DNA of 64,000 nucleotides from an uncultured Rubrivivax sp. (GTDB lineage: Bacteria; Pseudomonadota; Gammaproteobacteria; Burkholderiales; Burkholderiaceae_C): positions 2,625-66,624 of the forward strand of contig CAYJOA010000004.1 in NCBI GenBank assembly GCA_964371495.1, read 5' to 3'. The notes under the pieces were generated by a model. That model was not told the DNA's origin. It searched no databases and was given only the letters and a program-made list of their open reading frames with translations. Below, in pieces: positions 1 to 62,159 of this stretch. The position numbers were made by a program, and so were the translations under genes. Within the stretch, counting starts at the first letter, position 1. Each line of letters opens with the position of its first letter.

Positions 1-7
1 GTCGACG

Positions 8-1884: not shown

Positions 1885-2000
1885 CCGGTCGTCGATCGGG
1901 GCGGGTCCCCCACCTCCGACGTTCGCTGGCGCACAGACCCCGGCGGCGCAGAGGCGCACGCTCGCACGGACCGCGTTCATCGCATTCGACAGGAGTTGTC

Positions 2001-2201: not shown

Positions 2202-2381
2202 AGAAGGTCTGCGCAGCGGCAGAAACAGCCGGGCCGTGGCCAGGCTGATGAGCTCGGGCACGACCGACTTGGAGGATGTCCTGCATCGGTGCGAACACGG
2301 CCGAGGGTCCGGAAGCGCCGGCGCCTGGTGGGCATCTGCACCGAGCGTCCGGAGACACTGCGCTGGCACGGGTGGCCAGCG

Positions 2382-5300
2382 TCAATCGGCTGTTCCAGCC
2401 GAAAGCGTCGGCGCCGACGTCACTGGTGACGTCTGCGGCCGCTCCCGCCGCAGCTGCCACTGCTTGACCAGCGCATACAGCGCCGGGATCACGCCCAGCG
2501 TCAGCACCGTCGACGAGATCATGCCGCCGACCATCGGCGCCGCGATGCGGCTCATCACCTCCGAGCCGGTGCCGGTGCCCCACATGATCGGCAGCAGGCC
2601 GGCCATGATCGCGACCACCGTCATCATCTTCGGCCGCACGCGCTCTACGGCCCCTTCCATGATGGCCGCATAGAGATCGCTTGCACCCGGCAGCCGGCCC
2701 TCGCGGCGGCAGCGTTCCTTCGCTTCCTCCCAGGCGTGGTCGAGGTAGATCAGCATCACCACGCCGGTCTCGGCCGCGACGCCGGCCAGCGCGATGAAGC
2801 CCACCGCCACCGCCACCGACAGGTTGTAGTCCAGCCACCACATCAGCCACACGCCGCCGACCAGGGCAAAGGGCACCGACAGCATGACGATGAAGGTCTC
2901 GGTCAGGCGCCTGAAGTTCAGATATAGAAGCAGGAAGATCGTCAGCAGCGTCACCGGCACGACGATCTTCATGCGCTCGATGGCGCGCTCCATGGCTTCG
3001 AACTGGCCGCTCCAGGTGATGTAGTAGCCGGGCGGGAATTTCACCTTGTCGGCCACCGACTGGCGCGCCTCGGCCACGTAGGAGCCGATATCGCGGCCGC
3101 GGATGTCGACGAAGATATAGGCAGACAGCAGCGCGTTCTCGGTGCGGATGCCCGGCGCGCCGCGAACCACCACCACCTTGGCCACCTGCCCGAGCGGCAC
3201 CATGGCGCCACCCATGACAGGCACCAGCACCTCGCGTTCAATCTGCTCGGGGTTGCCGCGCAGCCCGCGCGGATAGCGCACCGTGACCCCGAAGCGTTCG
3301 CGGCCTTCGACCGTGGTCGTCACCATCTCGCCGCCGAGCGCGGTGCCGATCACGTCCAGCAGTTCGCCCACCGACAGGCCGTAGCGCGCCAGCTGTGCGC
3401 GGTCGGGCTCGATGTCGAGGTAGCTGCCGCCGGTCAGGCGTTCGGCGAAGGCCGAGGTCGTGCCCGGCACCGCCTTGACGACGGTCTCGATCTCGCGCGC
3501 CAGCTTCTCCATCTCGCCCAGGTCCTTGCCGAAGACCTTGATGCCGATCGGCGTGCGGATGCCGGTGGACAGCATGTCGATGCGCGCCTTGATCGGCATC
3601 GTCCAGGCGTTGGAGATGCCGGGAAACTGCAGCGCCTTGTCCATCTCGGCGATCAGCTTGTCGGCCGTCATGCCCGGCCGCCACTCCTCCTGCGGTTTCA
3701 GGTTGATGACGGTCTCGAACATTTCCACCGGGGCGGGGTCGGTGGCGGTGTTGGCGCGCCCGGCCTTGCCGTAGACCGAACTCACTTCGGGGAAGCTCTT
3801 GATGATCTTGTCCTGCGTCTGCAGCACCTCGGCGGCCTTGGTGATCGACATGCCTGGCAGCGAAGCCGGCATGTACAGCAGCGTGCCTTCGTTGAGCGTC
3901 GGCATGAATTCGCTGCCGAGCCTGGAGGCCGGGTACCAGGTCGCCGCCATCGCGAGCAGGGCCAGCACGATGGTGAGCCCCTTCCAGCGCATCACCGCCT
4001 CGATGATCGGGCGGTAGACCCAGATCAGGAAGCGGTTCACGGGGTTCTTCGCCTCCGGCATGATCTTGCCGCGGATGAACAGCAGCATCAGCACCGGCAC
4101 CAGCGTCACCGACAGCAGCGAGGCGCCGGCCATCGCGAAGGTCTTGGTGTAGGCCAGCGGCGAGAACAGCCGCCCCTCCTGCGATTCCAGCGTGAAGACC
4201 GGCAGGAACGACACCGTGATGATGAGCAGCGAGAAGAACAGCGCCGGCCCGACTTCCTGGCAGGCTGCGATCATCGCGTCGGCACGCTCCTTCAACGAGT
4301 GAACGGGTTTGAGCCGGTCCAGCCGTTCCAGGTGCTTGTGCGCGTTCTCGATCATCACGATCGCAGCGTCGATCATGGCGCCGATGGCGATCGCGATGCC
4401 GCCCAGGCTCATGATGTTGGAGTTCATGCCCAGCAGGCGCATGGCGATGAATGAGATCAGCACGCCCACCGGCAGCATCAGGATCGCCACCAGCGCCGAG
4501 CGCACGTGCATCAGGAAGACGATGCAGACGACGGCGACGATGATGCTCTCCTCGATCAGCGTCACCGTGAGGGTCTTGATCGCGCGGTGAATGAGGTCCG
4601 AGCGGTCGTAGACGGCCTGGATTGACACGCCTTCGGGCAGGCCGGCCGAGATCTCCTCGACCCTGAGCTTCAGGTTGTGGATGACCTCCAGCGCGTTCTC
4701 GCCGAAGCGCGACATCGCGATGCCGGAGACGACCTCGCCTTCGCCGTTCAGCTCCGACAGGCCGCGGCGCTCGTCGGGTGCCATTTCGACGCGGGCGATG
4801 TCGCGGATCAGCACCGGCGTGCCGCCCTCGGCCTTGACGACCAGCATCTCGATGTCGGCCTTGCCGCGAAGGTAGCCCTTGCCGCGCACCATGTACTCGG
4901 TCTCGGCCATCTCGACGACGCGGCCGCCGACGTCGCGGTTGGAGTCGCGGATGACCTGCGACACCTTCATCAGCGGGATGCCGTAGCTGCGCAGCTTGAG
5001 CGGATCGACGGTGACCTGGTAGGTCTGCACGAAGCCGCCGATCGACGCCACCTCGGCCACGCCCTGCGCCTTGGTGAGCTGGTAGCGCACGTACCAGTCC
5101 TGGATCGTGCGCAGTTCGGCCAGGGTCTTGTTCTTGGCCAGCAGCGCGTACTGGTAGACCCAGCCGACGCCGGTGGCGTCGGGCCCAAGCGACGGCGACA
5201 CACCCTTGGGTAGGCGGCTGGAGGCGAAGTTCAGATATTCGAGCACGCGACTGCGCGCCCAGTAGATGTCAGTGCCATCCTCGAAGATGACGTAGACGAA

Positions 5301-5573
5301 GGAGGCGCCGAAGAACGAGAAGCCGCGCACGACCTTGCTCTTGGGCACCGCCAGCATCGCCGTCGTCAGCGGGTAGGTCACCTGGTCCTCGACGACCTGC
5401 GGCGCCTGGCCCGGATATTCCGTGTAGACGATGACCTGCACGTCCGACAGGTCGGGCAGGGCGTCGAGCGGCGTCTTCATGACCGCGACGACACCACCGA
5501 TGACGACGAACAAGGTGGCGAGCAGGATCAGGAACGGGTTCCTGCCCGACCACTGGATGATCTTGGCCAGCAT
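2382..5573 (-). CDS. cusA: Heavy-metal efflux RND transporter, CusA/SilA-type
   Basis: 1063 aa. N-terminus MLAKIIQWSGRNPFLILLATLFVV and overall HME-RND character. Last gene of a C-B-A order with adaptor and OMF genes directly upstream on the same strand. Confidence 0.92.
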   Translation of the reverse strand: MLAKIIQWSGRNPFLILLATLFVVIGGVVAVMKTPLDALPDLSDVQVIVYTEYPGQAPQVVEDQVTYPLTTAMLAVPKSKVVRGFSFFGASFVYVIFEDGTDIYWARSRVLEYLNFASSRLPKGVSPSLGPDATGVGWVYQYALLAKNKTLAELRTIQDWYVRYQLTKAQGVAEVASIGGFVQTYQVTVDPLKLRSYGIPLMKVSQVIRDSNRDVGGRVVEMAETEYMVRGKGYLRGKADIEMLVVKAEGGTPVLIRDIARVEMAPDERRGLSELNGEGEVVSGIAMSRFGENALEVIHNLKLRVEEISAGLPEGVSIQAVYDRSDLIHRAIKTLTVTLIEESIIVAVVCIVFLMHVRSALVAILMLPVGVLISFIAMRLLGMNSNIMSLGGIAIAIGAMIDAAIVMIENAHKHLERLDRLKPVHSLKERADAMIAACQEVGPALFFSLLIITVSFLPVFTLESQEGRLFSPLAYTKTFAMAGASLLSVTLVPVLMLLFIRGKIMPEAKNPVNRFLIWVYRPIIEAVMRWKGLTIVLALLAMAATWYPASRLGSEFMPTLNEGTLLYMPASLPGMSITKAAEVLQTQDKIIKSFPEVSSVYGKAGRANTATDPAPVEMFETVINLKPQEEWRPGMTADKLIAEMDKALQFPGISNAWTMPIKARIDMLSTGIRTPIGIKVFGKDLGEMEKLAREIETVVKAVPGTTSAFAERLTGGSYLDIEPDRAQLARYGLSVGELLDVIGTALGGEMVTTTVEGRERFGVTVRYPRGLRGNPEQIEREVLVPVMGGAMVPLGQVAKVVVVRGAPGIRTENALLSAYIFVDIRGRDIGSYVAEARQSVADKVKFPPGYYITWSGQFEAMERAIERMKIVVPVTLLTIFLLLYLNFRRLTETFIVMLSVPFALVGGVWLMWWLDYNLSVAVAVGFIALAGVAAETGVVMLIYLDHAWEEAKERCRREGRLPGASDLYAAIMEGAVERVRPKMMTVVAIMAGLLPIMWGTGTGSEVMSRIAAPMVGGMISSTVLTLGVIPALYALVKQWQLRRERPQTSPVTSAPTLSAGTAD

Positions 5574-5585
5574 GGTGTACTCCGC

Positions 5586-7226
5586 TCAGTGGCCGCTGTG
5601 GGAAGTGGAACCCGCACCGGTGGCCGGTGCGGCCGGCTTTGCGGGTGCGGGCGCGGCGCCGCCCGTCCGCGGCGCGGCACCGATCGAGGTCACCACGTAC
5701 TCGCCGGGCTGGCGCTCGACGAATTCGAAGCTCACCTTTTGTCCAGGCTTCAAGCCCGCCAGCAGGGCGCCGTTGGCGGCCTTGAATTCCATCGTCATCG
5801 CCGGCCACTTCAGGCTGTCGACCGGGCCGTGGTTGAGGCTCACCGTGCCGGCCTGCAGGTCGACGCTGTCCACGCTGCCCTCGGCCTTGTGGCCCACCGT
5901 CGCCGGTGCCGGTGAGGTGCTGGCAGCTGGCGCCGCCGGGGCGGCACCCATGCCGCCGATGGCGGCCTTGAGGTTGCTCTCGGCGTCGATGAGGAAATTG
6001 GCAGCGACGACGACCTGTTCGCCGTCGCTCACGCCCTTGACGACCTCGACGAAGTTCTCGCCACGGGCGCCCAGTTCGACATCGCGCGGTTCGAAGCGCC
6101 CCTCCTGCACCTGCACGAGCACGATGCGCCGCGCACCGGTGTCGATGATCGCGGAGTCCGGCACGGTGAGCACCGGCGCCTTGCCGCCGACGGTGACTTG
6201 GACCTGCGCGAACATCGCTGGCTTCAATCTCTGGCCCGGGTTGGCCAGTTCCACCCGCACCGGGACGCTGCGGGTCTCCGCCGTCATGGTCGGGTAGACG
6301 AAGGTGATGCGACCGTCGAAGACCTCGTTGGGATACGCGGTGGTGGTGACCCGTGCCCTGGCGCCGGTCTTGACGAGGCCGATGTCCTGCTCGGACACGT
6401 CGGCAATGACCCACACCGACGACAGGTCGGTGATCTGGTACAGCATCTCGCCGGGCATGAAGCGCATGCCCTGCAGCGCCTTCTTCTCGGTGACCACACC
6501 CGACACCGGCGAGGGGAAAGTGACGGTGCGCTGGGGCTGGCCCGTTCTCACCAGGGCTTCCAGTTGTGCGGGCGCGAGTTCCCAGTGGCGCAGGTGGGCC
6601 AGGCTCGACTCGGCCAGTTGCGCCATGCCACCCTGAGCCTCGGCGCCCGCGTCCTTCATGGCCCGCAGGCCTTGCGCCGCAATGAGGTATTCGCGCTGCG
6701 CGGCCACCAGTTCGGGGCTATAGGCCTCGAACAGCGGCTGACCGCGGCTCACGTGCTGGCCGGTGACGTTGACGAGGAGCTTCTCGACATAGCCCTCGAA
6801 TTTCGGGGCGATCACGGCGACGCGCCGCTCGTCGGGTTCGACTCGTCCTGCCGCGCGCACCGTCCTGCCGAGCAGGCGCAGGCTCGCGGCCTCGGTGCGC
6901 ACGCCCAGCTTCTGGACCTTCTCGGTGCTGATGCGCAGCTGGGCGGACCCCCCCGCCGCGGCGGGCGAACTGTCCTCGTCCTCGCCCTCGTAGACCGCGA
7001 CGTAGTCCATGCCCATCGGGTCCTTCTTCGGCGTCGGCGACGTGTCGGGCAGGCCCATCGGGTTGCGGTAGTAGAGCAGCTTGCGCGCCTTGGGTGCCGA
7101 GGCGGCCGCCGTCGTGGCCGCATCCTCGCCGGGCGCATGCGCCTGGGAACGGGATCCGAGCCAGTAGCTGGTGGCGCCCACGGCGCCGAGCACGACGATG
7201 GCGAGCAGGGTGGTCACGGTCTTCAC
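5586..7226 (-). CDS. cusB: Efflux RND periplasmic adaptor CusB/SilB-type with C-terminal CusF-like metallochaperone domain
   Basis: 546 aa with a membrane-fusion-protein core (HlyD-like). The C-terminal ~70 aa read VDLQAGTVSLNHGPVDSLKWPAMTMEFKA..., carrying the CusF-type H/W/M/M ligand pattern. GTG start overlaps the cusC stop (GTGA). Confidence 0.88.
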   Translation of the reverse strand: MKTVTTLLAIVVLGAVGATSYWLGSRSQAHAPGEDAATTAAASAPKARKLLYYRNPMGLPDTSPTPKKDPMGMDYVAVYEGEDEDSSPAAAGGSAQLRISTEKVQKLGVRTEAASLRLLGRTVRAAGRVEPDERRVAVIAPKFEGYVEKLLVNVTGQHVSRGQPLFEAYSPELVAAQREYLIAAQGLRAMKDAGAEAQGGMAQLAESSLAHLRHWELAPAQLEALVRTGQPQRTVTFPSPVSGVVTEKKALQGMRFMPGEMLYQITDLSSVWVIADVSEQDIGLVKTGARARVTTTAYPNEVFDGRITFVYPTMTAETRSVPVRVELANPGQRLKPAMFAQVQVTVGGKAPVLTVPDSAIIDTGARRIVLVQVQEGRFEPRDVELGARGENFVEVVKGVSDGEQVVVAANFLIDAESNLKAAIGGMGAAPAAPAASTSPAPATVGHKAEGSVDSVDLQAGTVSLNHGPVDSLKWPAMTMEFKAANGALLAGLKPGQKVSFEFVERQPGEYVVTSIGAAPRTGGAAPAPAKPAAPATGAGSTSHSGH

Positions 7227-8545
7227 AGGTCTTCTCCCAGGATTCTTTCGATCTCGGCCAGGCGCAGTTGCGCCTCGACCTGCGTCTTGAGCAGTTCCTG
7301 CCGCGCCGAGCGGATCTGGCGCTGGGCTTCGAGCAGCATCGCAAATTCGGCCTTGCCGTTCTCGTAGGCCGCCAGGGCAGACTGCAGGCTCAGTTCAGAC
7401 TGCGGCAGCAACTGGGTCTTCACCAGCGCCTCGCTGCGCCGCGCGGCATCCAGGCTGGCCAGCTTGCCGGCCAGTTCGCCGAGCAGTTGGTGCTGCAACG
7501 CATCGGCGCGCGATCGCGCGGCAGCGACCATGGCTTCGGCTTCGCGTTCCTGGCCGCGACGAGACTCCTGCTGCAGCGGGATGTTCATCTCGAACATCAG
7601 GCCCCAGGTGGTGATGCGTGTGCCCATCTGGGTCGGCACCACACCGACCTGGAGATCGGGGTAGCGGTTCTGCAGCGTGAGCTCGCGATTCTTCTGCGCG
7701 GCGCCCAGGCGGGCCAGTTCGGCCACGATCTGCGGATTGCGCACCCGTGCCCGCTCGGCCAGCGACGCGGCATCGGCGGTGGTCAGCGCCGGCGGCTCGC
7801 GCAGCGCCCGCGGGTCGGCCAAGGGGGCTGTGCCGTCGCGCGCCAGCAGGCCGTTCAGCATCGCCCGCAGCTGACGCTTCTCGCTGTCGAGGGCGATCAG
7901 TTCGGCGCGCATGGTGGTCTGCTCCAGCTGCGCGCGGATCGCGTCCGACTGGCCGACCAGGCCTCCGGCGTAACGGGCCTGCGCGACCTGCTCGAGTCGT
8001 GACATCAGTTGCAGCACTTCGGCGGCCAGGCGTTCGTTGCCGGCGGCGCGGTAATACTCGGCATAGACGACCTTGATGCGGGCCGCCAGTTCGGCCCAGG
8101 TGGCTTCCGTGCGGGCTTCGGCCTGCCTGGCGTCGGCGGCGGCGGCATCGCGCCGCAGATCGCGCTTGCCCCACAGCGGAAAGGTCTGCATCAGCGTGTA
8201 TTTCGTCTCGCCGACCTTGGACGGCAGCAGGCTGGGCGAAGCGCCGCTGGCGTAGTTGTTGATGTCCATGAGCTCGATGCGCAGCACCGGGTCGGGCAGG
8301 GCGCCCGCGGGCCCGATGCGCTGTGCCGCCGCGTCGGCCTCCTGCCGCATGGCGTTCAGTTCCGGGCTCTGTGCTTGTGCGAACGCCAGCAGTCCCCGCA
8401 GGTCGGAGCCCAGCGGGGCCTCTTGCGCCAGGGCCGGGCCCAAGGCACCAGCGAACGCCAGCAGGCCGCACGCCAGACCACGTGCCCATTGCCGGGCAAG
8501 CTCGGTGCGATTGGGTCCAAGGACTCGTTCTGAAAAGGTCGACAT
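7223..8545 (-). CDS. cusC: Outer-membrane efflux factor, CusC-type
   Basis: OMF (TolC-family) character. Start taken at the internal ATG at 8545 (MSTFSERV...LACGLLAFAGALGPALAQE signal-like). The 79-aa upstream extension of the ORF looks non-coding. Confidence 0.85.
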   Translation of the reverse strand: MSTFSERVLGPNRTELARQWARGLACGLLAFAGALGPALAQEAPLGSDLRGLLAFAQAQSPELNAMRQEADAAAQRIGPAGALPDPVLRIELMDINNYASGASPSLLPSKVGETKYTLMQTFPLWGKRDLRRDAAAADARQAEARTEATWAELAARIKVVYAEYYRAAGNERLAAEVLQLMSRLEQVAQARYAGGLVGQSDAIRAQLEQTTMRAELIALDSEKRQLRAMLNGLLARDGTAPLADPRALREPPALTTADAASLAERARVRNPQIVAELARLGAAQKNRELTLQNRYPDLQVGVVPTQMGTRITTWGLMFEMNIPLQQESRRGQEREAEAMVAAARSRADALQHQLLGELAGKLASLDAARRSEALVKTQLLPQSELSLQSALAAYENGKAEFAMLLEAQRQIRSARQELLKTQVEAQLRLAEIERILGEDL

Positions 8546-8858
8546 GGTTCGGCTCCTCGGACTGTGTCGGCATCGGGCATGGCGCCAGGCGCCGGCAGCG
8601 GGTTGGGTCTGTGCTGACGAGGTCAGTGTCGGGAAAGAGAAAAGGAAGGAGGCAACGAGAGTGCCGATCGAGCTCATGACGAGGAAGTCCAGAGAGGTGA
8701 ATACACAAGGTTCGGTGGACCTGCGCGCCATCGGTGAGCGAGGGTCGAACTCGAAGAGGAGCCCGTCGCTCGCGATCACCACCGGACGGTGGCAGTCAGC
8801 AGGAGGCGGTGGTGCACCGGTCAGGGCAGCCGTGGCGGCTGTCTGCCAGTGTCAGGCG

Positions 8859-9329
8859 CTATAGCGCCAGTCGTAGAAAGGCGATCGGGATCGGCAGGTT
8901 CCGGCCGACATCCCGGCGCGGCAGCCACAACTGCACCGGCGCGAGGGCCGGCATGGGGACGACGGTCACTGCCGCCGTCGCGATCACTGCATGAGACTGA
9001 ACGTCATCCAGTGCCGACTTCAACGGCGGGATTGAAACCGGCGCCTTGCTGCAGAAGTCCTGGCAGTTCGTCTTGGCCAGGCTACCGTGATGCGCTGGCG
9101 CGTCGGCACCGTGCGACGGCAGCAAGCCACCGTCAGCCGGTGCATGGTCATGGAATGCAAGGTCGTCAAGGGCCTCCGCCATTGCCACCAGGCGGCTGGC
9201 AGTCGCGGTAACCGGCTCCGTCTGACCCGTGGTCAGACAGGCATTCGCAACGCTCGTCCCCAGCCCGAACAGCCACAGGAGCAGCACGCGGGCTGCCCAC
9301 AGTCGCAGTTGTCGACGGTAAAGGAACAT
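8859..9329 (-). CDS. Secreted/membrane His- and Cys-containing protein of unknown function (possibly DUF2946/CopL-like copper-associated)
   Basis: Start at ATG 9329 gives MFLYRRQLRLWAARVLLLWLFGLGTSVANA (signal/anchor), then HDHAPADGG...HGADAPAHHGS and CQDFC. Divergent from a PepSY gene, next to cus. Family assignment is a guess. Confidence 0.4.
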   Translation of the reverse strand: MFLYRRQLRLWAARVLLLWLFGLGTSVANACLTTGQTEPVTATASRLVAMAEALDDLAFHDHAPADGGLLPSHGADAPAHHGSLAKTNCQDFCSKAPVSIPPLKSALDDVQSHAVIATAAVTVVPMPALAPVQLWLPRRDVGRNLPIPIAFLRLAL

Positions 9330-9569
9330 GGATGGGGATTGTTCCAGACTTGATGCCCGAATGCCTGAGTCGATTCCGGAGGCGAGCTTGACCAGCATCA
9401 AGGTGATGGACCATGCTCATGCAGCCGGTAAGGTCTTGGACAAGCATATCGCAGCGCCCGGTCGTTGCTCGGTCGGCCACCAGTTCCACCTGCACGACGT
9501 TCGCTGCAATGAGTCGGCAGGCGCTGACACCACAATTGGCAGCTGCCACGAAACGTCAGTTCACCGACC

Positions 9570-10310
9570 ATGTCCCTGTCCGCCACGACCTATCGAGTGC
9601 ACCGCTGGTTGGGCTGGCTGGTCGGCGTGCAGGTGTTGATCTGGGTGACTGGCGGCGTGGTGTTCTCGCTGCTGCCGTTCCAGGCCTGGGTCAAGGGCGG
9701 CGACACCGTCGAGCCGCCGACGGTGGTGCTGCCGGCTGGGTGGGCCGAGCGGGTGGCGCCGACACTTCAGGCCGCCGCACGACTCGGTCAGGTGTCGGCC
9801 GTGGCTGCGGTGGCCACGCCGCAGGGTCCGGCGCTGCGCCTGACCTATATCGGTGGCCCTGAACCCGTCATCGTGCCTGCCGACGGCTCGGCCTGGGCGC
9901 CACCCGACGAGGCCGCACTGCGGCGGTTTGCCACGGGTCTCTTCCGCGGGCAGGCGGCGCTGACGACGCTGGAACGCGTGGCCAAGGTGCCGCCGCGGCT
10001 GGGCATCGTTGCGGAGACCGGCGGCCGCGGCGACGTCTGGCGGGCGCAATTCGACGACACGCTCGCGACCCGCATCTACCTGAACGGCCGCACCGGAGAA
10101 TTCGTCACCTCGCGCAACGAGGCCTGGGTCTGGTACGACTTCTTCTGGCGCCTGCACATCATGGACTACGCCGAGGGCGAGGACTTCAACGGCACGCTGC
10201 TGCGTGGCGCCTCGATCGTCGCTTGGGGGCTGGTGATCGCTGGCGCGGTGCTGGCGGTTTTGGCGATCCGTCGGCGCTGGCGTGTCGCCCACAGGTCAAA
10301 GCTGGACTGA
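9570..10310 (+). CDS. PepSY-domain membrane protein
   Basis: N-terminus [27 protein letters not shown] is typical of PepSY-associated TM helices. A second TM lies at the C-terminus ([18 protein letters not shown]). Confidence 0.65.
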
Positions 10311-37828: not shown

Positions 37829-38893
37829 TCAGCAGCGCGCGGGCAAGGCGACCGGGGCGAAGTAGCGGCGCTTGAAGGCCAGCGCCACGTGCACCAGCCC
37901 GATCATCACCGGCACCTCCACCAACGGCCCGATGACCGCCGCAAAGGCCACGCCCGAGTTGATGCCGTAGACCGCGATGGCCACCGCGATGGCGAGCTCG
38001 AAGTTGTTGCTGGCCGCGGTGAACGACAGCGTGGCGCTCTTTTCGTAGTTCGCGCCCAGGCGACGGCTCATGAAGAAGGAGAACACGAACATGATGACGA
38101 AGTACAAAAGCAGCGGAACTGCGATGCGCACCACGTCGAACGGAATCGTCACGATCAGCTTGCCCTTCAGGCTGAACATGACGACGATGGTGAAGAGCAG
38201 CGCCACCAGCGTGATGGGGCCGATCTTCGGCACGAAGCGCGTGTGGTACCACTCCTTGGTGACGAAGCGCAGCATGATCACGCGCGTCAGCACGCCGGCA
38301 ATGGCCGGGATGCCGAGGTAGATGAAGACGCTTTGCGCGATCTGGCCGATGGAGATGTCGATCACCGAACCCGACAACCCGAACAGCGGCGGCAGCACGG
38401 TGATGAAGAACCAGGCATAGACGCTGAAGAACAAGACCTGGAAGATCGAATTGAAGGCCACCAGGCCGGCGGCGTATTCGGTGGAGCCCTTGGCGATCTC
38501 GTTCCAGACGATGACCATCGCGATGCATCGCGCCAGGCCGATCATGATCAACCCGACCATGTACTCGGGCTTGTCGGGCAGGAAGATGATGGCCAGCGCG
38601 AACATCAGCACCGGACCGACGATCCAGTTCTGCACCAGCGACAGCCACAGCACCTTCACGTCGCGAAAGACGTCGGGCAGTTCCTCGTAGCGCACCTTGG
38701 CGAAGGGCGGGTACATCATGAGGATGAGGCCCAGCGCAATGGGCACGTTGGTGGTGCCGACGTTGAATCGGTTGATGAAGTCCTCGATGCCGGGCACGAG
38801 GTAACCCAGGCCCACACCCAGCGCCATGGCGGCGAAGATCCACACGGTGAGGTAGCGGTCCAGGAACGAGAGCTTCTTGGTCAGGTTGCTCAT
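37829..38893 (-). CDS. acr3: Arsenite efflux permease ACR3
   Basis: 354 aa: [31 protein letters not shown]...[22 protein letters not shown], typical of Acr3. Confidence 0.92.
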
Positions 38894-38927
38894 GGCAGAT
38901 TGGCGGTCAGAACATCCGAAGAAGTGA

Positions 38928-38948
38928 ATACTTCAACAATTCAAGTAT
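38928..38948. promoter_or_regulatory. AT-rich 9-bp inverted repeat upstream of acr3 (candidate ArsR operator)
   Basis: ATACTTCAA-caa-TTCAAGTAT (8/9 complementary), 35-55 bp upstream of the acr3 ATG in an otherwise GC-rich context. Confidence 0.4.
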
Positions 38949-39171
38949 GTTGGAAGAGTAGCAGAAATGCAACCCCGCAACAACGCCGGGCAAGCCCGGC
39001 GCAACCTTGGGCAGCTGTACCGCGTATGGCTGCCGCTCGGGTCAGCGCCGATGACCGACCCGAACGTCGGCTTGATGGCGCATACCGTGAGTACGCCCGC
39101 CGGCGGCGACCGGCTCCTTACGCTGCGCTGCTGCCGATCCGGCGGCAACCGCGAAGGACAGCAGTGGGTCG

Positions 39172-54589: not shown

Positions 54590-56280
54590 TGAGCTCGGCC
54601 TCCGACGGAAACAACGCGGGCCAGAGCAACGGCCAGGCCGGCGAAGCCGACTCACTGGACCTCGATGGTCGCCGAGCCATCGAAGGCCGCGGACGACCAC
54701 AAGCCAGCGTGCCGGCAGGACGGGTCGCTGAAACTCAGCGTGCTGCAGCTGAAGGCCAGGCGGCGATTGATCCGCTTGTGGCAGACCAGGCGCTGGCAAC
54801 AACAGAGCAGAAACGCGACAGCGGCACCAGGCCGCCTAGTGAGCCGCGAACCTCCCCAGAGTTGGCTCTGGCCGATGCACAAGCACTGAAAGGCATCGAC
54901 AGTCGCCATAAAGGCCTTCAAGCCTTGGTGCCCGGCACGCTCGGCGTGGTGGCGGCACGCGAGGCGGCGACCAGCGACGTGTCGGCGTTGGACGGCTTTG
55001 CGGACAAGGTGCTGCAGGGCCGTGCGGCTGCCGTGATGGGCGACACCGCTGAACAGCAGCCGGCGTACAAGACCGCGCTCAGGGAGGTCTCGCCGCAGTA
55101 CGCCGGCCTGGCTGAACGGGCCTATGCCGAAGAGCAGCAGCGGTCAGCTGCAAAGGAAGATCGAAAGGCCTTGGAGTACGCCAGCCGACGCGACGATGCA
55201 GCCGACAGCATTGCTGGGCGGTACGCAACGATGGCGAGCGCAGGCCTGACCATCAAAGACTTGCAGGGCCCGGCGCTTGATCGCTTGGCCGTCAAGGACA
55301 GCAGGGACCTGTTGCTGATCGAAGGGTTTCCGCCGCACCCGCGTGCGAGCGAAGCCAAGGCGTTGGTTGCAGACAGCATGAAGAGCGATGCTTACCGAGC
55401 CACGTTTGATCGGGAGACAGCCGAATGGGCAACGCCTGGAGTGGTTCGGGCGACAAGCTTTTCGGCGCGTGCGGTGTCGGGCGAGCTACCGGAACAGGTG
55501 CGCGCATCCGGTGCGATGCCGGATGCGAAGCGGGCCGGCACGGCCCAACGATCAGCTGAACGAGTTGACGCGGACATCAACTCAATGCGATCGGAAGGGG
55601 ACACAACCGAGAAGCGCCGCGCCATTCCGCCGCTTGAAGACCGCTTCAACGTCAAACGGATCGGCTTGATCGAGAAGGAATATCACTTCAGGGACCAGGC
55701 CGGGAAGGTTGCCTTCACCGACAAGCTCCTGAGCATCAGCACTGGCAGCGAGAGTCCAGCGGCGATCAAGGCCATGGTGGATCGCGCTGCTGAGCGTGGA
55801 TGGGAAACGGTGAGGCTGACCGGTTCACCGGAGTTTGTCCGGCAGGGATGGATCGCCGCTACTGCACAGGGGCTGAAGGCTGTAGGCCACACGGTGACAG
55901 CTGGGGACCGGGAAGCGGCTGCAAAGGAGCGGGCGCGGCGGCAAGTTGGTCATGATGGACCGGCACCGCAGAGGCCAGGTGAAGCCGTCGGGCGAGTTCA
56001 ATCGGACTACGCCGAACGTGTCAGCGGCGACAGGAAAGCAGCTGAGCTTGGCGGGCAGCGCCAACTCGCCGCTGCGATTGAGAAGGCACTCGTCGACGGC
56101 AAGGTGTCTCCCGAGCTTCGTGGCCAGGTGCGTTCCATGATCGCCACCGAGGGTACGAAACGACTTGCGAGAGGCGAACGGTTCAGGATGCCGGTTTTCG
56201 ACGCAAAGGCTCCACGAACCCGCGCAAAAACCGTTCAACCGAGCGTCAAGCAACGAGGCGACAGAGAGCGGTCCCGCTAA
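54586..56280 (+). CDS. LPD7 (large polyvalent protein-associated domain 7) protein
   Basis: 564 aa. Disordered Ala/Glu-rich N-terminal half, then ...KEYHFRDQAGKVAFTDKLLSISTGSESPAAIKAMVDRAAERGWETVRLTGSPEFVRQGWIAATAQGL..., as recalled for LPD7. Confidence 0.6.
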   Translation: MMSSASDGNNAGQSNGQAGEADSLDLDGRRAIEGRGRPQASVPAGRVAETQRAAAEGQAAIDPLVADQALATTEQKRDSGTRPPSEPRTSPELALADAQALKGIDSRHKGLQALVPGTLGVVAAREAATSDVSALDGFADKVLQGRAAAVMGDTAEQQPAYKTALREVSPQYAGLAERAYAEEQQRSAAKEDRKALEYASRRDDAADSIAGRYATMASAGLTIKDLQGPALDRLAVKDSRDLLLIEGFPPHPRASEAKALVADSMKSDAYRATFDRETAEWATPGVVRATSFSARAVSGELPEQVRASGAMPDAKRAGTAQRSAERVDADINSMRSEGDTTEKRRAIPPLEDRFNVKRIGLIEKEYHFRDQAGKVAFTDKLLSISTGSESPAAIKAMVDRAAERGWETVRLTGSPEFVRQGWIAATAQGLKAVGHTVTAGDREAAAKERARRQVGHDGPAPQRPGEAVGRVQSDYAERVSGDRKAAELGGQRQLAAAIEKALVDGKVSPELRGQVRSMIATEGTKRLARGERFRMPVFDAKAPRTRAKTVQPSVKQRGDRERSR

Positions 56281-56305
56281 GAGTTTTGGCCTACCGGCAA
56301 TCTTT

Positions 56306-56334
56306 GGTCCATCGCACATCGCACGAAATGGACC
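56306..56334. terminator. Hairpin between convergent genes (possible bidirectional terminator)
   Basis: GGTCCAT-15 nt-ATGGACC, perfect 7-bp stem, in the 63-bp gap between the LPD7 stop and the cassette gene C stop. No clear U-tract. Confidence 0.25.
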
Positions 56335-56343
56335 TGGCACAAG

Positions 56344-57027
56344 CTAGATGAGTGTGGGCAAATCTTGCTCGATTGAGCTAACAAGCTTTGGTGCCAACTG
56401 ACCGCTGACCTTGACAGTCCCGTTGGCTGCAAAGGCAACTTGGCCCCTTACACCCCCGAGAAAAAGCTCGAAGACGGCGAGATCAACCTTGTACTTCAGT
56501 CCATTTAGCACGGACATTTCTTCGACCTTCATGCCTTGCTTAGACGCAAACTCCATCCGAGCGACAAGATCGTCGGCAACCACTGCACCGACGACCTTTA
56601 GTCCAACTAGCTTGAACGTATCGACTGCATCAAAAACGGCCGAAGGCCTGATATGGTCAAACGTGATCGGTTTGGCTGTGAAGCCCATCCCTGCGATGGA
56701 TTCAAGGGCGTTGAGCAGGTCGCGAATATTTCGACCTGGGTTTTCCACTCGCAAGAACGTATGCACCCCCAAAGCAACGAAGGCGAAATCAGTGAAGCTG
56801 ACACTGTCGATTTGTTCGTATGAGGGCGAGCCATCTGCCTCAAGCTTTGTGACAACGATTCTTGTGCGCCAGAGAAAACGGTAATCTGCCCCATTGAAGC
56901 TCGCTGCGATCCGAATGAATCCAAATTGAGATGCTGGCAACAGCGGACATTTCCCGACGAGCGCGCCGAAATCTCGTACGCCTGCTGGGAGTTGAACACG
57001 GAACCAGCGATATCTGGTGATCATCAC
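56344..57027 (-). CDS. Cassette gene C: 227-aa soluble protein, no family recognised
   Basis: Start GTG 57027 or ATG 57024 overlaps the stop of gene B (GTGATGA). Low-GC codon usage, no TM, signal peptide or nucleotide-binding motif. Confidence 0.7.
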   Translation of the reverse strand: MMITRYRWFRVQLPAGVRDFGALVGKCPLLPASQFGFIRIAASFNGADYRFLWRTRIVVTKLEADGSPSYEQIDSVSFTDFAFVALGVHTFLRVENPGRNIRDLLNALESIAGMGFTAKPITFDHIRPSAVFDAVDTFKLVGLKVVGAVVADDLVARMEFASKQGMKVEEMSVLNGLKYKVDLAVFELFLGGVRGQVAFAANGTVKVSGQLAPKLVSSIEQDLPTLI

Positions 57028-58127
57028 TCGACTCCAGAGCTTGCGCTCGCATATTCTGCCCGCAGCGAAGCCACGAGGTCTCGCGCCTTCGATTCAATGA
57101 CTCGGGATATTGCATCTGATTCAGACTTGAATGGTGGCCGCCGACGCGTTGAGACTTTTCCTTCCTCAAGCGGGAACACACCGCTGAGGATGAACGAGAA
57201 ACCGGTACAGTCCTTCGGGTCCGAAAAGCCCGCCTCGACGTCATAGACGTTGCCTTCACCCATTGTTTCTGTAGCGGTCCATCCCATCTTGATGATGTAG
57301 TAGTCCTCCTCATCAAGAAGCTCATTCAGTATTTCCGAGCGACTGACGCCACTTCCCCGAAGAAACACTCTTTCAACGTGCGTACCCGGCCCACCGTCTG
57401 CGTCGCTTTCACCATCGCTATCGGTGGCGTCAGGCTTAGCCTTGAACACGTATACGTCAGTGACATCTCGCCGAACAAATCCGTGCATTGTTGTGGCCAG
57501 CTCATGGAAAAACCGAGAGCGTAGTTTGGCCGAAGGAATATCAAAGAGTGAAACGATGGTTTTGGTGAGAGGGACCGCGGCCTCCTTCTCTACCTTCGCC
57601 AGTACTGTCTCCCTGACAGCATTGAGGTACTCGTTTTGCGTGTTGCGGACCACATAGCCAGTGGCCGACTTCACAAACTCAATGGTTCCGTCTCGAACCT
57701 GAATTTGTGCAAATTCGCTCCGCTTGTAATCCACCTCCGAATACTGCACACGGATACTTAGGCTTTCGCCTTCACGAGTCACTTGCACGATATCGCCAGT
57801 GGCCTCCATCTCCTTTCGTACCTGTTCGACGACTCCCTGCAGTTCGTCAAAGTCTCCCACGCCAGCGACGTCCATTGAAGTTGTTCGCTCACGGCGAGAA
57901 GCAATACCCAGTCGAGCTGCAATTTCCTTGTGGTCATAGTAGTCGTGCGTTAGCGTCGAAAAGTACTTGGCCAAGTCTTCGCGCGGCGTCTTCTTGCTAA
58001 CTATGATGTTGCGGCGCTGGAACAACCGAACTACGGTCGGAGCATCGACCTTGTGTTGGTTTAGTGCGTCAAAAACATTCTTGTCGCTGGCGTAGTACAG
58101 CGACGGACCATGAGTTCTCTTCTTCAT
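57024..58127 (-). CDS. Cassette gene B: ~367-aa two-domain soluble protein with acidic linker, no family recognised
   Basis: ATG 58127 overlaps the stop of gene A (ATGA); the ORF also allows GTG 58136. Linker PDATDSDGESDADGGP. Weak GS-x12-DEED pattern. Confidence 0.7.
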   Translation of the reverse strand: MKKRTHGPSLYYASDKNVFDALNQHKVDAPTVVRLFQRRNIIVSKKTPREDLAKYFSTLTHDYYDHKEIAARLGIASRRERTTSMDVAGVGDFDELQGVVEQVRKEMEATGDIVQVTREGESLSIRVQYSEVDYKRSEFAQIQVRDGTIEFVKSATGYVVRNTQNEYLNAVRETVLAKVEKEAAVPLTKTIVSLFDIPSAKLRSRFFHELATTMHGFVRRDVTDVYVFKAKPDATDSDGESDADGGPGTHVERVFLRGSGVSRSEILNELLDEEDYYIIKMGWTATETMGEGNVYDVEAGFSDPKDCTGFSFILSGVFPLEEGKVSTRRRPPFKSESDAISRVIESKARDLVASLRAEYASASSGVE

Positions 58128-59116
58128 TCCCGCCACCCCATATCACCAGGGTTATAGGTGCTAGTGACGCTTGTGATTCTCTCGATCTGGATCTGGCTCA
58201 AGATCGATTCACGAGCTGGATCGAAACCCCAGGCCTTCACGTACTTCTTGCGCGCAGTCAAAAAGATGGACTTCAAATCGTTGGGTGCCTCCGGGTGCGT
58301 CACACGTAGCAAGATCCTCTCCCCAGACTCCAGCATTTGATACCTCGACAGGCTGTCGAGGAAGTATTCAAACTCTTCTGGGCACGAGGCTTTCGCGTTG
58401 TAGTAAATGACGTAGCCGGCGCTCTGCTCCTCGGTCGCCTGATGCTTCAGAATGATGTAGGGCGCTGTAAGTGTTTCAACTGTGGCGGGCTGAGCCCAGA
58501 CGTCACCTTGGCGTCGCGACATCACAAGGTCGGGGTAGTAAAAGGTATATGCCTTCGGAAGTTCGCCGTCCGACTTCAAGCGAATGATGTCGTTCGCTAT
58601 GCTGTACAACCTTTGGATGTCATGCGGGCCGATGAAATGCAGTTGTGTGTTCGGCGCCACCGGAAGAGCCTGGAGGTCGACCTTGTCAATTGCTTCGTAG
58701 AACGGCTTGTCATACCCATTGTCATGGTTATGAATGAACAGGAGGCCCCTCACTTCATGAGCCTCGGATTCTTCGACTGAATACTTGGCGCGCCACTGCC
58801 CCGAACACCGGGCGCAATCGATCGTCATGCACAGCGACTTGAAGGCTCCGCGAAGCCTCGTTGCCGTAATCGAGTCGGCCGCATAGCTCTTCAGGTCAGT
58901 ATGAAGGTAGACAGCCTTTCCAAGATACGGATCTCTGTACATGAAGACAACGTCACCAGGATGACTTGCCTTCGGCTTTCCACCGTCCCCCAAGTGCTTC
59001 TCGTTGGCACAGTCGAAGTTGTCATCGGTCTTTGGATGGGTATCCCAGAGAAGGTGTCTAAAGATGTCCTTTGATAGTCGGGCTGCAATTTCGCCGATGT
59101 TGATGGTCTCCGCCAC
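58124..59116 (-). CDS. Cassette gene A: 330-aa soluble protein with PD-(D/E)xK-like motif, no family recognised
   Basis: GTG start at 59116 with GGGAG 4 nt upstream. ...HPGDVVFMYRDPYLGKAVYLHTDLKSY.... Low-GC. Confidence 0.7.
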   Translation of the reverse strand: MAETINIGEIAARLSKDIFRHLLWDTHPKTDDNFDCANEKHLGDGGKPKASHPGDVVFMYRDPYLGKAVYLHTDLKSYAADSITATRLRGAFKSLCMTIDCARCSGQWRAKYSVEESEAHEVRGLLFIHNHDNGYDKPFYEAIDKVDLQALPVAPNTQLHFIGPHDIQRLYSIANDIIRLKSDGELPKAYTFYYPDLVMSRRQGDVWAQPATVETLTAPYIILKHQATEEQSAGYVIYYNAKASCPEEFEYFLDSLSRYQMLESGERILLRVTHPEAPNDLKSIFLTARKKYVKAWGFDPARESILSQIQIERITSVTSTYNPGDMGWRE

Positions 59117-59275
59117 GAATCTCCCTTCTTCAGCAGCAGCGACCGCGCGGGATGGCGGCTACGCTTGCGGCTCAAAGCTAGGGCAGTTTAAGCACGGCTT
59201 CCAGACGGGGCAACAAAGCGAAGCGCTATGGGCTGACTTCTTAGTGCCGAGGCGAAGGCCAAGTTGGACTGGAGG

Positions 59276-60373
59276 TCAAGATCTACCGCGCCCTGTGCTC
59301 GGCGTCGGCGCCAGAGCCCCGACATCCGGTTGATCCACTTCCACTTGTTGAGCGCGCCTCAATGCTGACCTCGCTGCCCCCTGTCCTCCTGGCGCGACTT
59401 CGGCCAAGTATCGAACGGCTTCCACAGCGAGCCGGACATCCTCAGGGTCGTTTGACCTGGCCAGCGCAACCGCAATTTGCTCCCAAGCCCTGATCGCATC
59501 CGCCCGTACCGCCAGCGCGCGAGCATTGGTGCGCTGCGCAGGCCTCTGCCGCTTCAGTTGCCCACGGCCTGCTGCTCGCTCCTCCCACAGCTTGCGGTAG
59601 TTCCGATTCACGGCCCGTACGGGCTGCCTGCTGGCCACCGCATTCACACCTCGGTCCTGCAGGTTCCGAGCGAAGACGGCGCGCCAGCGATCCAGGTCGG
59701 CCTTGCGCGGAGACAGGCGCACCCCGTCGTACCGATCGGCACGCACCGAAAGGTGCACGTGTGGCGCCCCCTGGTCCTCGTGCATCACGAACACGTACTT
59801 GTGCCCCTCGAACAGCTCGCGCGCCGCCTCGGCCGTGGCAGCGCGCACCGCCTCCGGCGGTGTGCCCACCGGCATCGAGAAGACGATGTTGAAAGCCTCG
59901 CGCCTCGGGCTGTCGTCGTCGATATACGCGCCGGCGACGCGCCACTCATCGGTCAGCTGGACCAGGCCGTCGCGCCCCTGGATCTTCTCGCCCCGCTCGT
60001 CCTCGATCTCCAGCGTCTTGCCCTTGCCGCCAACCTCTTCCTTGCTCTGACGGCCGATGTATCGGAAGTGGGCAGCAATGGCCTTCATGCCGCGGCCACC
60101 GCCGGTGATCTTGACCATCACCTGCGTCGCACCAGGCGACACCGTGCTGCGCACCCGACTGCGCACTTCGTTGGGAGACATCACGGCGGTCAACGCGGCC
60201 ACGGTCGTCAGCAGCGGCAGCTTGCCGCCGCCCCCGCCACCCTTGCCCTTGGGGATCGGATAGAACAGCCTGGCGCCCCACTCGGACAGCATGCCGTCGG
60301 TGTCCAGCGTGTTGCGCGTGGGGCCCTGCGGCGCGGCCGGGCCCGTGCCGGTCTTCGATCGGTCGTTGCTCAA
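59276..60373 (-). CDS. Relaxase (MobA/VirD2-family, short form)
   Basis: IAAHFRYIGR (catalytic Tyr motif) and HKYVFVMHEDQGAPHVHLSV (HxDxxxPHxH 3-His motif). Start overlaps the mobC stop. Confidence 0.85.
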   Translation of the reverse strand: MSNDRSKTGTGPAAPQGPTRNTLDTDGMLSEWGARLFYPIPKGKGGGGGGKLPLLTTVAALTAVMSPNEVRSRVRSTVSPGATQVMVKITGGGRGMKAIAAHFRYIGRQSKEEVGGKGKTLEIEDERGEKIQGRDGLVQLTDEWRVAGAYIDDDSPRREAFNIVFSMPVGTPPEAVRAATAEAARELFEGHKYVFVMHEDQGAPHVHLSVRADRYDGVRLSPRKADLDRWRAVFARNLQDRGVNAVASRQPVRAVNRNYRKLWEERAAGRGQLKRQRPAQRTNARALAVRADAIRAWEQIAVALARSNDPEDVRLAVEAVRYLAEVAPGGQGAARSALRRAQQVEVDQPDVGALAPTPSTGRGRS

Positions 60374-61063: not shown

Positions 61064-61369
61064 TCACGACCCCTGGATGAACCAGACGAGCTTGACCATC
61101 GCCATCACGACCCAGGTCGCGATGGCGAGCTTCGCCAGGCGAAGCGTCATCCAGCGGTAGGCCTCGAATTCGAACAGCGCGCGATAGGCGCGCCTGGCCC
61201 CGATCCAGAGGCAAAACACCCCCAACACGGCCCCTACCAGCCCGCCAGAGGCGGGCAAAGTCCTGATCCAGTACAGCCCAAGGGCCGGCGCCAGGATGGC
61301 GTCCAGCGGTGCCAGGCACCGCAGCGCTGGGGTGCTTGCCCACAGCGCTCGCTCGAAGGTCGGGTTCAT
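61064..61369 (-). CDS. Small membrane protein, unknown function
   Basis: ~101 aa from ATG 61369 with three hydrophobic segments. Lies between the oriT-like region and mobC. Confidence 0.45.
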   Translation of the reverse strand: MNPTFERALWASTPALRCLAPLDAILAPALGLYWIRTLPASGGLVGAVLGVFCLWIGARRAYRALFEFEAYRWMTLRLAKLAIATWVVMAMVKLVWFIQGS

Positions 61370-61413
61370 AGGTTGGTACTCACTCAGACACCACAAGAAC
61401 AGCGCCAGTACCC

Positions 61414-61445
61414 CGGCTCATACGCACGTCGTACGTGCTTTGAGC
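61414..61445. promoter_or_regulatory. Imperfect nested hairpin in AT-richer intergenic DNA (candidate oriT or operator element)
   Basis: GGCTCA-ta-CGCACG-tcgta-CGTGC-tt-TGAGCC, in the ~300-bp gap between divergent relaxosome-side and stb-like genes. Confidence 0.35.
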
Positions 61446-61694
61446 CGTGGCGTACCCGAACCGCCTCCGAAAGCTTGCTTCCAGAGCACCAAACGTACGC
61501 TCTGTTGCACAAGAAGGCCGATTCGACTGGCTTGCATTTACTTTATATGCACTGTTCCTGCATTGCAATCACCTATAGTGTCTCGATACGCACTTCTCTT
61601 GCATCGTTTGTATGTTCAAACAGCAGAAGGTACGCCCGATGCACCCCAAGCAACCCCACCCTGCCCTCAGTCGTCCCTCGTGGACGGCCGTCCA

Positions 61695-62159
61695 ATGACT
61701 CCGGACGCCTTCTCGGCCAGCCTCGAACGAAGCGCAGCCAAGCACCCGCCCTCAAAGGCCCGCCGCATCGCGGCGCTGCTGCCCCAGATCGAGGCGGCCA
61801 TGGCTCAGGGGAGCCCGCGCGCCCACATCGTCACGGCGCTCCTGGACGTGGGCATCGAGGTCACGCCGCACCAGCTCTCGAACGTCATCGCCCGTCTGCG
61901 CAGGCAGCGGGAAGACGCGCCAGGCTTGCCCGAGGCAAGGCCGACGCTCGGCGCGGGCATACCGGAAAGCGGGACAAGCGTCTTGCCGGTGCCCAGGATC
62001 GCCAGCGTTCCCACGCTCGCGCCTGCACTTTCAGCTGCACCGGCCGCCAGTCCGGCATCGAAGTTCGGTGCGCACGACCCTCGCCTCCTGGACGAGGTCA
62101 TGCGCAGCACGCCCGACATGAAAGCACTCGCCAAGTTGGCACCAAAGGGGAAACCATGA
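61695..62159 (+). CDS. Putative DNA-binding protein upstream of stbB (StbA position)
   Basis: 154 aa from ATG 61695 (MTPDAFSASLERSAAKHPPSKARRIAALLPQIEAAMAQG...HQLSNVIARLRRQRE). Stop overlaps the stbB-like start. Function inferred from position only. Confidence 0.5.
   Translation: MTPDAFSASLERSAAKHPPSKARRIAALLPQIEAAMAQGSPRAHIVTALLDVGIEVTPHQLSNVIARLRRQREDAPGLPEARPTLGAGIPESGTSVLPVPRIASVPTLAPALSAAPAASPASKFGAHDPRLLDEVMRSTPDMKALAKLAPKGKP

Follow-up and report, generated by a model that had tools for sequence, protein, structure and literature searches.

The window analyzed here is a stretch of 64,000 nucleotides from an uncultured Rubrivivax sp. (GenBank assembly GCA_964371495.1, contig CAYJOA010000004.1, positions 2,625 to 66,624 of the forward strand), and it carries a VirB-type conjugative element. 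At positions 56344-59116 of the window lies a cassette of three minus-strand open reading frames (ORFs) that are chained via overlapping stop and start codons and encode the proteins A, B, and C. An initial annotation, which was made from the letters alone, had regarded the cassette as a candidate undescribed defense system. The present analysis indicates that it is probably a complete, divergent copy of the defense system 3HP (Rst_3HP), acquired horizontally as a module of ~2.85 kb (56343-59195) and carried as cargo of the conjugative element; this assessment includes the proposed mechanism, i.e., a putative DNA clamp that would license a DNase. The features of the locus are as follows:

hp1 (protein A ORF), 58124-59116, minus strand: 330 aa, GTG start; predicted PD-(D/E)xK DNase of a GAPS4a-like family, putative effector
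Predicted active-site codons H52-P53-G54-D55...D74-L75-K76 of hp1, 58889-58963, minus strand: based on invariance and the GAPS4a alignment
hp2 (protein B ORF), 57024-58136, minus strand: 370 aa from GTG, 367 aa from the ATG at 58127 (57024-58127); N-terminal four-helix domain and alpha/beta domains, CENP-N/Chl4-like (RdgC superfold), predicted scaffold or sensor subunit
hp3 (protein C ORF), 56344-57027, minus strand: 227 aa from GTG, 226 aa from the ATG at 57024, isoelectric point (pI) 9.0; RdgC fold, fastest-evolving subunit, predicted DNA-binding partner of Hp2
Leader or upstream region, 59117-59195, minus strand: ribosome-binding site (RBS) GGGAG at 59121-59125 and conserved block GTGCTTAAACTGCC at 59182-59195; based on DNA similarity and upstream alignment

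The stop/start overlaps (ATGA at 58124-58127 between A and B, GTGATGA at 57021-57027 between B and C) and the GGGAG RBS, 4 nt before the GTG at 59116, were found where the initial annotation had located them. Independent gene calls on identical metagenome contigs gave 330/367/226 aa, and the homolog consensus sequences likewise favor the ATG starts of B and C. The foreign appearance of the cassette, previously estimated by hand, was confirmed by computation, with a G+C content of 0.52-0.55 over 56200-59200 versus 0.64-0.70 in both flanks, which is the minimum of the whole window. At third codon positions, the G+C content is 0.56-0.67 in the cassette versus 0.77-0.87 in the genes for VirD4, the OmpA-like protein, the relaxase, and MobC, with LPD7 (0.68) as the exception. 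Gene annotations agree with the described placement between LPD7 and the mobC-relaxase operon: the plus-strand flank encodes a VirD4/TraG coupling protein, an OmpA-like protein, and LPD7, which ends at 56280 and is convergent (tail-to-tail) with gene C, and the upstream flank encodes, on the same strand as the cassette, a MobA/VirD2-type relaxase (59276-60373) and MobC. Neither a Walker A motif nor a transmembrane-like hydrophobic segment is present in proteins A, B, and C, as had been noted before.

Assignment to the 3HP defense system

The assignment is based on three consecutively numbered PADLOC models, Hp1, Hp2, and Hp3, which match proteins A, B, and C in this order. PDLC03004 (Hp1) matches protein A with an E value of 6.7e-77 (residues 2-327 of 330 against model positions 3-329 of 333), PDLC03005 (Hp2) matches protein B with 6.4e-43 (residues 13-353 against positions 5-343 of 359), and the match of PDLC03006 (Hp3) to protein C is weak (E = 0.0023). 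The assignment of protein C is rescued by the third ORFs of 76 related loci, all of which form one hidden Markov model (HMM) family with C that includes the copy of a P2-family prophage (L001). Members of the Hp1, Hp2, and Hp3 families are present as adjacent, co-oriented genes in the order hp1-hp2-hp3. The earlier statement that none of the proteins could be placed in a known family was overturned by these matches and by the Pfam family PF26115, which was found on homologs of protein A.

The 3HP system was discovered as a three-gene system of the P2 hotspot that has no clear predicted domain and protects Escherichia coli against phage P1 (Rousset 2022). It has been included in DefenseFinder and PADLOC since 2021-2023; DefenseFinder lists it as Rst_3HP, with copies mostly on prophages, and Rst_3HP also appears in later surveys. 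A 2024 survey placed 3HP among the defense systems without an assignable known domain family. The family is thus already catalogued, and its mechanism is unpublished. In a tblastn search, the trio was located in a Peduoviridae prophage of Klebsiella, where it is flanked by the portal/terminase block and the gene for the replication endonuclease. The annotated proteins of this P2-type copy (L001) have 301/359/227 aa; for Hp1 (301 aa), the match covers ~330. Among 5,426 complete E. coli genomes, 18 contain near-identical DNA to the P2-type 3HP, with its genes labeled as hypothetical proteins. Two of these 18 copies reside on ~55-kb plasmids (NZ_CP148585.1 and NZ_CP148400.1), not on chromosomes. 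With the assignment proposed here, three "hypothetical proteins" on a conjugative element become a recognized defense system.

Conservation of the three genes

A scan of one genome per species yielded 234 relatives, and 80 loci (L004-L083) were kept, which originate from Beta- and Gammaproteobacteria and from metagenome-assembled genomes (MAGs) labeled Cyanobacteria, Bacteroidota (Flavobacteriaceae and Saprospiraceae), Bacillota, Desulforhopalus, and Caldiserica. Proteins A, B, and C have hundreds of homologs each, all of them unnamed. The exhaustive representative search with the A profile delimited a family of 489 clusters at 50% identity and retrieved exclusively Hp1-type proteins of ~320-360 aa, with no GapS4a-b fusions among them. 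The initial annotation had proposed a survey of conserved three-gene synteny, and this was found: hp2 immediately follows hp1 wherever the contig is long enough, and the order hp1-hp2-hp3 is kept in 76/80 loci, each with a third ORF of 220-249 aa that adjoins hp2 or overlaps with its end. Restriction-modification (R-M) and mobile genetic element (MGE) genes were seen nearby in a qualitative survey. All third ORFs (76/76) fall into one HMM family with C, of which 51 were recovered by the first pass and the remaining ones by the second.

The median identity to the window copy decreases from 42% for A via 30% for B to 19% for C, i.e., a steep divergence gradient runs along the operon. Since its Hp3 subunit is so divergent, standard models nearly miss the 3HP system of the window. 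The gradient and the marginal Hp3 match suggest that loci of this kind could be rated as incomplete during automated annotation.

Three loci deserve separate mention. On the MAG contigs L077 (Saprospiraceae) and L079 (Flavobacteriaceae), no third ORF of >=120 aa begins near the end of the hp2 homolog, with some contig remaining; these loci may be two-gene intermediates between 3HP and the GAPS4 system discussed below, or assembly or start-codon artifacts. A distant three-gene variant (363/415/215 aa) is located beside IS26 on the IncR plasmid NZ_CP122402.1 of Enterobacter roggenkampii (L084, 3995-6988). Its first protein is ~30% identical to A over residues 2-270 only, and similar matches were found on ~14 Enterobacter, Citrobacter, and Klebsiella plasmids. 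The variant may represent a separate 3HP-like subtype on clinical plasmids.

Hp1 is a predicted PD-(D/E)xK nuclease

The residues H52, P53, D55, D74, and K76 of Hp1 are invariant in 82/82 homologs with identities of 38-90%. D55, D74, and K76 make up the PD-(D/E)xK signature D...(D/E)-x-K in all 82 sequences, and catalysis is predicted from it. HHalign compared the 82-sequence alignment of A with GAPS4a, using sequences from the supplements of preprint 10.1101/2025.09.07.674715, and reported a probability of 97.3% and an E value of 2.5e-11 over 213 columns; the conserved Hp1 residues align with H56, D59, and K81 of GAPS4a. This preprint describes GAPS4a as a diverged PD-(D/E)xK enzyme, whose N-terminal part contains the motif HGxD...SxK; the Asp of this motif is essential for defense. 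The alignment of the invariant residues with this motif identifies D74-L75-K76 as the putative (D/E)xK of the Hp1 active site. Of the two motifs that had been highlighted in the initial annotation, DLK of protein A is therefore real and essentially invariant.

Homologs of A carry the precomputed Pfam family PF26115 (PDDEXK_GAPS4). The Pfam copy used for our own search evidently lacked PF26115 and gave no match for A, B, or C at E <= 1, save one at chance level. The NCBIfam model GapS4a (NF047933) matches A below threshold (E = 1.2e-8; 34.6 bits versus a cut-off of 270), and a sequence search of A against the Protein Data Bank (PDB) found no solved relative. By these sequence comparisons, Hp1 is homologous to the GAPS4a PD-(D/E)xK nuclease. 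Homology at the domain level is clear, but the score below the cut-off and the deviating motif HPGD...DLK indicate a sister family and not GapS4a proper.

Hp2 and Hp3 resemble a DNA-embracing fold

The AlphaFold 2 (AF2) model of Hp2 (pLDDT confidence score, 77.7; predicted template-modeling [pTM] score, 0.71) begins with a domain of four helices, which is followed by two alpha/beta domains and by a long helix at the C terminus. In a Foldseek search of the PDB, its top seven matches were all CENP-N/Chl4 (E = 9e-5 to 1e-3; probability, 0.99-1.00; TM-score, 0.21-0.35). The model of Hp3 (pLDDT, 84.6; pTM, 0.79) had E. coli RdgC (2owl) as its only confident match in the PDB (E = 7e-5; TMq, 0.45), and 6 of its top 13 matches in a viral structure library were annotated as RdgC, with a best E value of 9.2e-7 and a TMq of 0.57. 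Such a relationship is not visible in the sequences: the Pfam search assigned neither B nor C to the RdgC/RexA families, the C profile did not find RdgC among the PDB sequences, and HHalign detected no relationship between B and C with either shallow or deep alignments. Conservation in C is limited to G35, G65, and an NP(P/G)R motif, with no catalytic-looking residues among them. The DEED motif of B, the second one highlighted in the initial annotation, is poorly kept (D272 in 30/78 sequences) and was rejected as a functional motif.

In the literature, RexA, RdgC, Iml3, and Chl4 are treated as one DNA-binding fold whose members form homo- or heterodimers around DNA. The structure paper on lambda RexA describes a RexA/RdgC/IML3/CHL4 fold with conserved non-specific DNA binding, the members of which assemble as homodimers or as the Iml3-Chl4 heterodimer. 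The independent fold searches with B and C point to two halves of this same DNA-embracing fold family. From the predicted folds, the pI of 9.0 of C, and the literature, a Hp2-Hp3 dimer around DNA can be proposed by analogy. As the fastest-diverging subunit, Hp3 is likely to be a specificity or counter-defense interface.

Hp2 was also compared with GAPS4b, the second subunit of GAPS4. One GAPS4b sequence (379 aa) was taken from the AlphaFold 3 cif file of the preprint authors and three more from two-gene GAPS4 loci; the search for such loci with a three-sequence GAPS4a alignment found a single metagenome locus, and further GAPS4b sequences came from two plasmids. HHalign aligned B with GAPS4b over 328 collinear columns (9-361 versus 5-375; E = 1.1e-3; probability, 20%; score, 33.8), compared to 13-23 columns with E values of 0.2-0.4 in four cross-controls. 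The score was reached by none of 96 shuffled alignments (column shuffles, 14.7 +/- 2.0, maximum 19.5; block shuffles, 19.5 +/- 2.4, maximum 25.4), none of which aligned over more than 85 columns, and the reversed-alignment control scored 12.1. NCBIfam had no match for B. A remote homology of Hp2 and GAPS4b is likely but not proven, as suggested by the score above all nulls, the equal length, and the same coupled position downstream of homologous nuclease genes.

Mobility and genomic context

At the DNA level, the window and its closest relatives are similar from 56343, at the stop codon of C, to ~59195, i.e., 80 nt upstream of A, where the similarity ends. The genes for VirD4, the OmpA-like protein, LPD7, and the relaxase are shared by none of the related loci, and the sole match to a flanking protein is a weak one to MobC in L053. 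The leader (59117-59195) travels with the cassette and possibly provides it with a promoter or regulatory site of its own. The only repeat found at both module edges is the 7-nt sequence AAGCTAG (56341-56347 and 59175-59181, in direct orientation), which lies within a 20-nt match at 70% and may be an insertion trace or due to chance.

The relaxase stop codon is located 159 nt upstream of the cassette on the same strand. A scan for sigma-70 promoters and terminators revealed nothing above shuffle expectation; in this gap (59117-59275), neither a terminator-like site nor a sigma-70 promoter was found, and read-through from the mobC-relaxase operon is therefore possible. If true, it would couple 3HP expression to transfer functions.

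At least 24 metagenome contigs contain the element of the window with its gene order unchanged, e.g., L089 (positions 1-9841 of a 107,855-nt contig from ENA ERZ13693045), where a ParB_N gene, an ArdC-type antirestriction gene, an SNase-like nuclease gene, and TraX were observed beyond the relaxase operon. With the ArdC-type gene, the element carries anti-defense cargo in addition to the defense cargo 3HP. Megablast of the 50-64 kb region against PLSDB yielded no related plasmid and only one 200-nt stretch of virB11. Milder G+C dips (0.59-0.61 versus ~0.66 for the window) at 29000-31000, 38000-39000, and 61200-61800 may mark other acquired cargo or regulatory regions.

A copy of the cassette with an 82% identical protein A was found on an F-type conjugative element, adjoining a type I R-M operon in which a PIN/PhD pair is embedded. 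The neighborhood was surveyed with the 99 nearest large ORFs from 33 diverse loci (E <= 1e-10 for defense matches), which gave matches to type I and IIG R-M, MADS, AbiLi, PARIS AriA, ZorD, Septu PtuA, DISARM DrmMI, MzaA, and HEC-01, and Pfam detected integrases, resolvases, transposases, and a P2 GPA protein; the survey was made without a baseline and is accordingly qualitative. The 3HP system, so far seen as mainly prophage-borne, spreads on conjugative plasmids or integrative and conjugative elements and on genomic islands across several phyla.

Proposed mechanism and alternative explanations

GAPS4 has been described as a DNase that is triggered by DNA breaks or linear DNA, forms a GAPS4a2b2 complex on a GAPS4b ring, and degrades host DNA too (Mahata et al.; 10.1101/2025.09.07.674715). 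By analogy, Hp2, as a probable GAPS4b relative with a CENP-N/Chl4-like fold, and Hp3, with its RdgC fold, would assemble into a heteromeric clamp or horseshoe that embraces DNA, for which the Iml3-Chl4 heterodimer, the RdgC ring, and the predicted GAPS4b2 ring may serve as models. Hp1, the PD-(D/E)xK DNase homologous to GAPS4a, would dock on this clamp, presumably at the helical domain with which Hp2 begins. Binding of the clamp to phage-associated DNA, most probably to free ends, linear molecules, or breaks as in GAPS4, would license Hp1 to cut, and the phage genome would be destroyed, possibly together with that of the host, i.e., by abortive infection. Hp2 and Hp3 are probably the DNA-embracing sensor and Hp1 the licensed effector. 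The links of Hp1 to GAPS4a, of Hp2 to GAPS4b and the CENP-N-like fold, and of Hp3 to the RdgC fold give a concrete and testable mechanism for 3HP.

Several observations weigh against this reading of the cassette as a 3HP system with a clamp-licensed DNase. The Hp2-Hp3 heterodimer, the docking of Hp1, and the trigger by DNA ends are argued from analogy, and the trigger may differ from that of GAPS4, since 3HP has a third gene that GAPS4 lacks. The fold matches have low TM-scores (0.21-0.35 for Hp2, 0.45-0.57 for Hp3) and find no support at the sequence level, and the homology of Hp2 and GAPS4b is borderline by the statistics of HHalign itself (probability of 20%, E = 1e-3). Taken alone, the PADLOC match of protein C to Hp3 (E = 0.0023) is weak, and the missing baseline limits the neighborhood survey. 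Moreover, the experimental phenotype stems from the P2-hotspot three-gene system, which was challenged with eight phages, and not from the window copy; the prophage copy L001, used here for comparison, is only ~40%, 29%, and 16% identical to the latter.

Four alternatives were considered. The cassette could constitute a truly undescribed defense system, as initially annotated; B and C have no family-level match in the Pfam copy or NCBIfam, and public records label the genes "hypothetical protein". This alternative was ruled out, with hardly any probability left to it, by the dedicated PADLOC models for all three proteins, the listing of Rst_3HP in DefenseFinder and later surveys, the experimental test of the family in 2022, the homologous trio in a P2-family prophage, and the common HMM family of C and the third genes elsewhere. 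What endures of the initial proposal is an anti-phage module carried as foreign cargo, for which the PADLOC matches, the P2 hotspot, the neighboring R-M and toxin-antitoxin (TA) genes, and the protection against P1 speak. The same proteins might instead act mainly on other mobile DNA, i.e., in plasmid competition, exclusion, or fertility inhibition, with a clamp that senses incoming linear or nicked DNA and degrades rival conjugative or transforming DNA. The cassette is located on a conjugative element between the type IV secretion system/coupling-protein block and the relaxase operon, a second copy resides on an F-type element and distant variants on IncR/IncF plasmids, and a GAPS4-type trigger (linear DNA, breaks) is not phage-specific in principle. 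However, the sole experimental phenotype of the family is anti-phage (P1), most catalogued copies are on prophages, many of the surveyed loci are chromosomal islands, and the element would need to spare its own transferred DNA. A predominant role of this kind appears rather unlikely; it is compatible with the anti-phage explanation and does not exclude it.

An addiction or stability module, in which a toxic nuclease Hp1 is checked by Hp2 and Hp3 and post-segregational killing stabilizes the conjugative element, would agree with the compactness and translational coupling of the operon, with its occurrence on plasmids and other MGEs, and with a predicted DNase effector that could be toxic; degradation of host DNA has also been described for GAPS4. 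We consider it very unlikely, because no subunit resembles a known antitoxin in Pfam or NCBIfam and the trio is often found beside genuine TA pairs in chromosomal islands and prophage hotspots; furthermore, the related PARIS system was shown in the same study (Rousset 2022) not to be a TA system, a result that concerns PARIS only. Even less probable is an accessory of recombination or repair without an immune role, in which an RdgC-like RecA modulator (Hp2/Hp3) and a partner nuclease would aid the establishment or recombination of the element in a new host. RdgC does modulate RecA, and the closest structural matches of Hp3 are RdgC proteins, including phage-encoded ones annotated as recombination-associated, but the proteins do not belong to the RdgC family by sequence, the trio has a tested anti-phage phenotype and defense-island neighbors, and the phage-exclusion protein RexA has the RdgC fold as well. 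Overall, anti-plasmid, addiction, and recombination roles each fit the P1 phenotype, the prophage-hotspot location, and the defense neighbors less well than the anti-phage 3HP system with a putative DNA clamp and DNase.

Comparison with known defense systems

The cassette shares with the P2-type 3HP the same three families in the same order, the translational coupling, similar lengths (330/367/226 aa versus 301/359/227 aa in the Klebsiella P2-family prophage), and the character of a mobile cargo module in defense contexts. It differs by its low identity (~40%, 29%, and 16%), by its marginal match to the Hp3 model, and by its setting in a high-GC host, on a VirB-type conjugative element rather than in the hotspot of a P2 prophage. 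What the present analysis adds to the catalogued family is the GAPS4/RdgC-fold hypothesis and a wider range of hosts and vehicles.

GAPS4 is similar in several respects. Their nucleases, Hp1 and GAPS4a, are homologous members of the PD-(D/E)xK superfamily, and both have the motif H-x-x-D...x-K in their N-terminal part. Hp2 (367 aa) and GAPS4b (366-386 aa) are both encoded downstream of the nuclease gene with overlapping codons and can be aligned collinearly over their full length as profiles, and the predicted ring of GAPS4b fits the RdgC-type fold of Hp2 and Hp3. In contrast, GAPS4 consists of two genes (a and b, or a fusion) and 3HP of three, the third of which is kept in 76/80 loci, whereas none of four GAPS4 loci (L086, L087, L088, and the MAVP-R pair of the preprint) has an Hp3-like gene after GAPS4b. 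The nuclease motif is HPGD...DLK in Hp1 and HGxD...SxK in GAPS4a, the NCBIfam GapS4a score of Hp1 (34.6) is far from the cut-off of 270, the C-terminal third of Hp1 is unaligned, and a trigger by DNA breaks was shown for GAPS4 only. Our literature search found no paper that mentions 3HP and GAPS4 together.

The best structural matches connect Hp3 with RdgC and Hp2 with CENP-N/Chl4, and the proteins also resemble the Iml3-Chl4 pair in size (Hp3, 227 aa, and Iml3, 245 aa; Hp2, 367 aa, and Chl4, 458 aa). With RexA, the fold already serves as the DNA-binding half of a phage-exclusion system, but its partner is the membrane protein RexB, not a nuclease, and RdgC is a housekeeping RecA modulator. 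RdgC, RexA, and CENP-L/CENP-N have no detectable sequence similarity to Hp2 and Hp3, and the TM-scores are modest. Shedu and Hachiman, whose logic is cited by the authors of GAPS4, likewise depend on a PD-(D/E)xK nuclease that is licensed by sensing DNA ends or aberrant DNA; their sensors are unrelated, and the cassette, which lacks a Walker A motif, encodes no helicase or ATPase.

Tentatively, and with somewhat less than even confidence, 3HP can be envisaged as a three-subunit cousin of GAPS4, in which the ring of two GAPS4b proteins would be replaced by two RdgC-superfold proteins, Hp2 and Hp3, comparable to the step from the RdgC homodimer to the CENP-L/CENP-N heterodimer, and in which Hp3 would be the subunit for specificity or against counter-defense. 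The links described here suggest that 3HP, GAPS4, and Rex have a common design, in which an RdgC-type DNA clamp is combined with an effector. If true, 3HP, GAPS4, and, on the sensor side, RexA would belong to a wider immune class in which an RdgC-type clamp reads the state of the DNA and switches on an effector.

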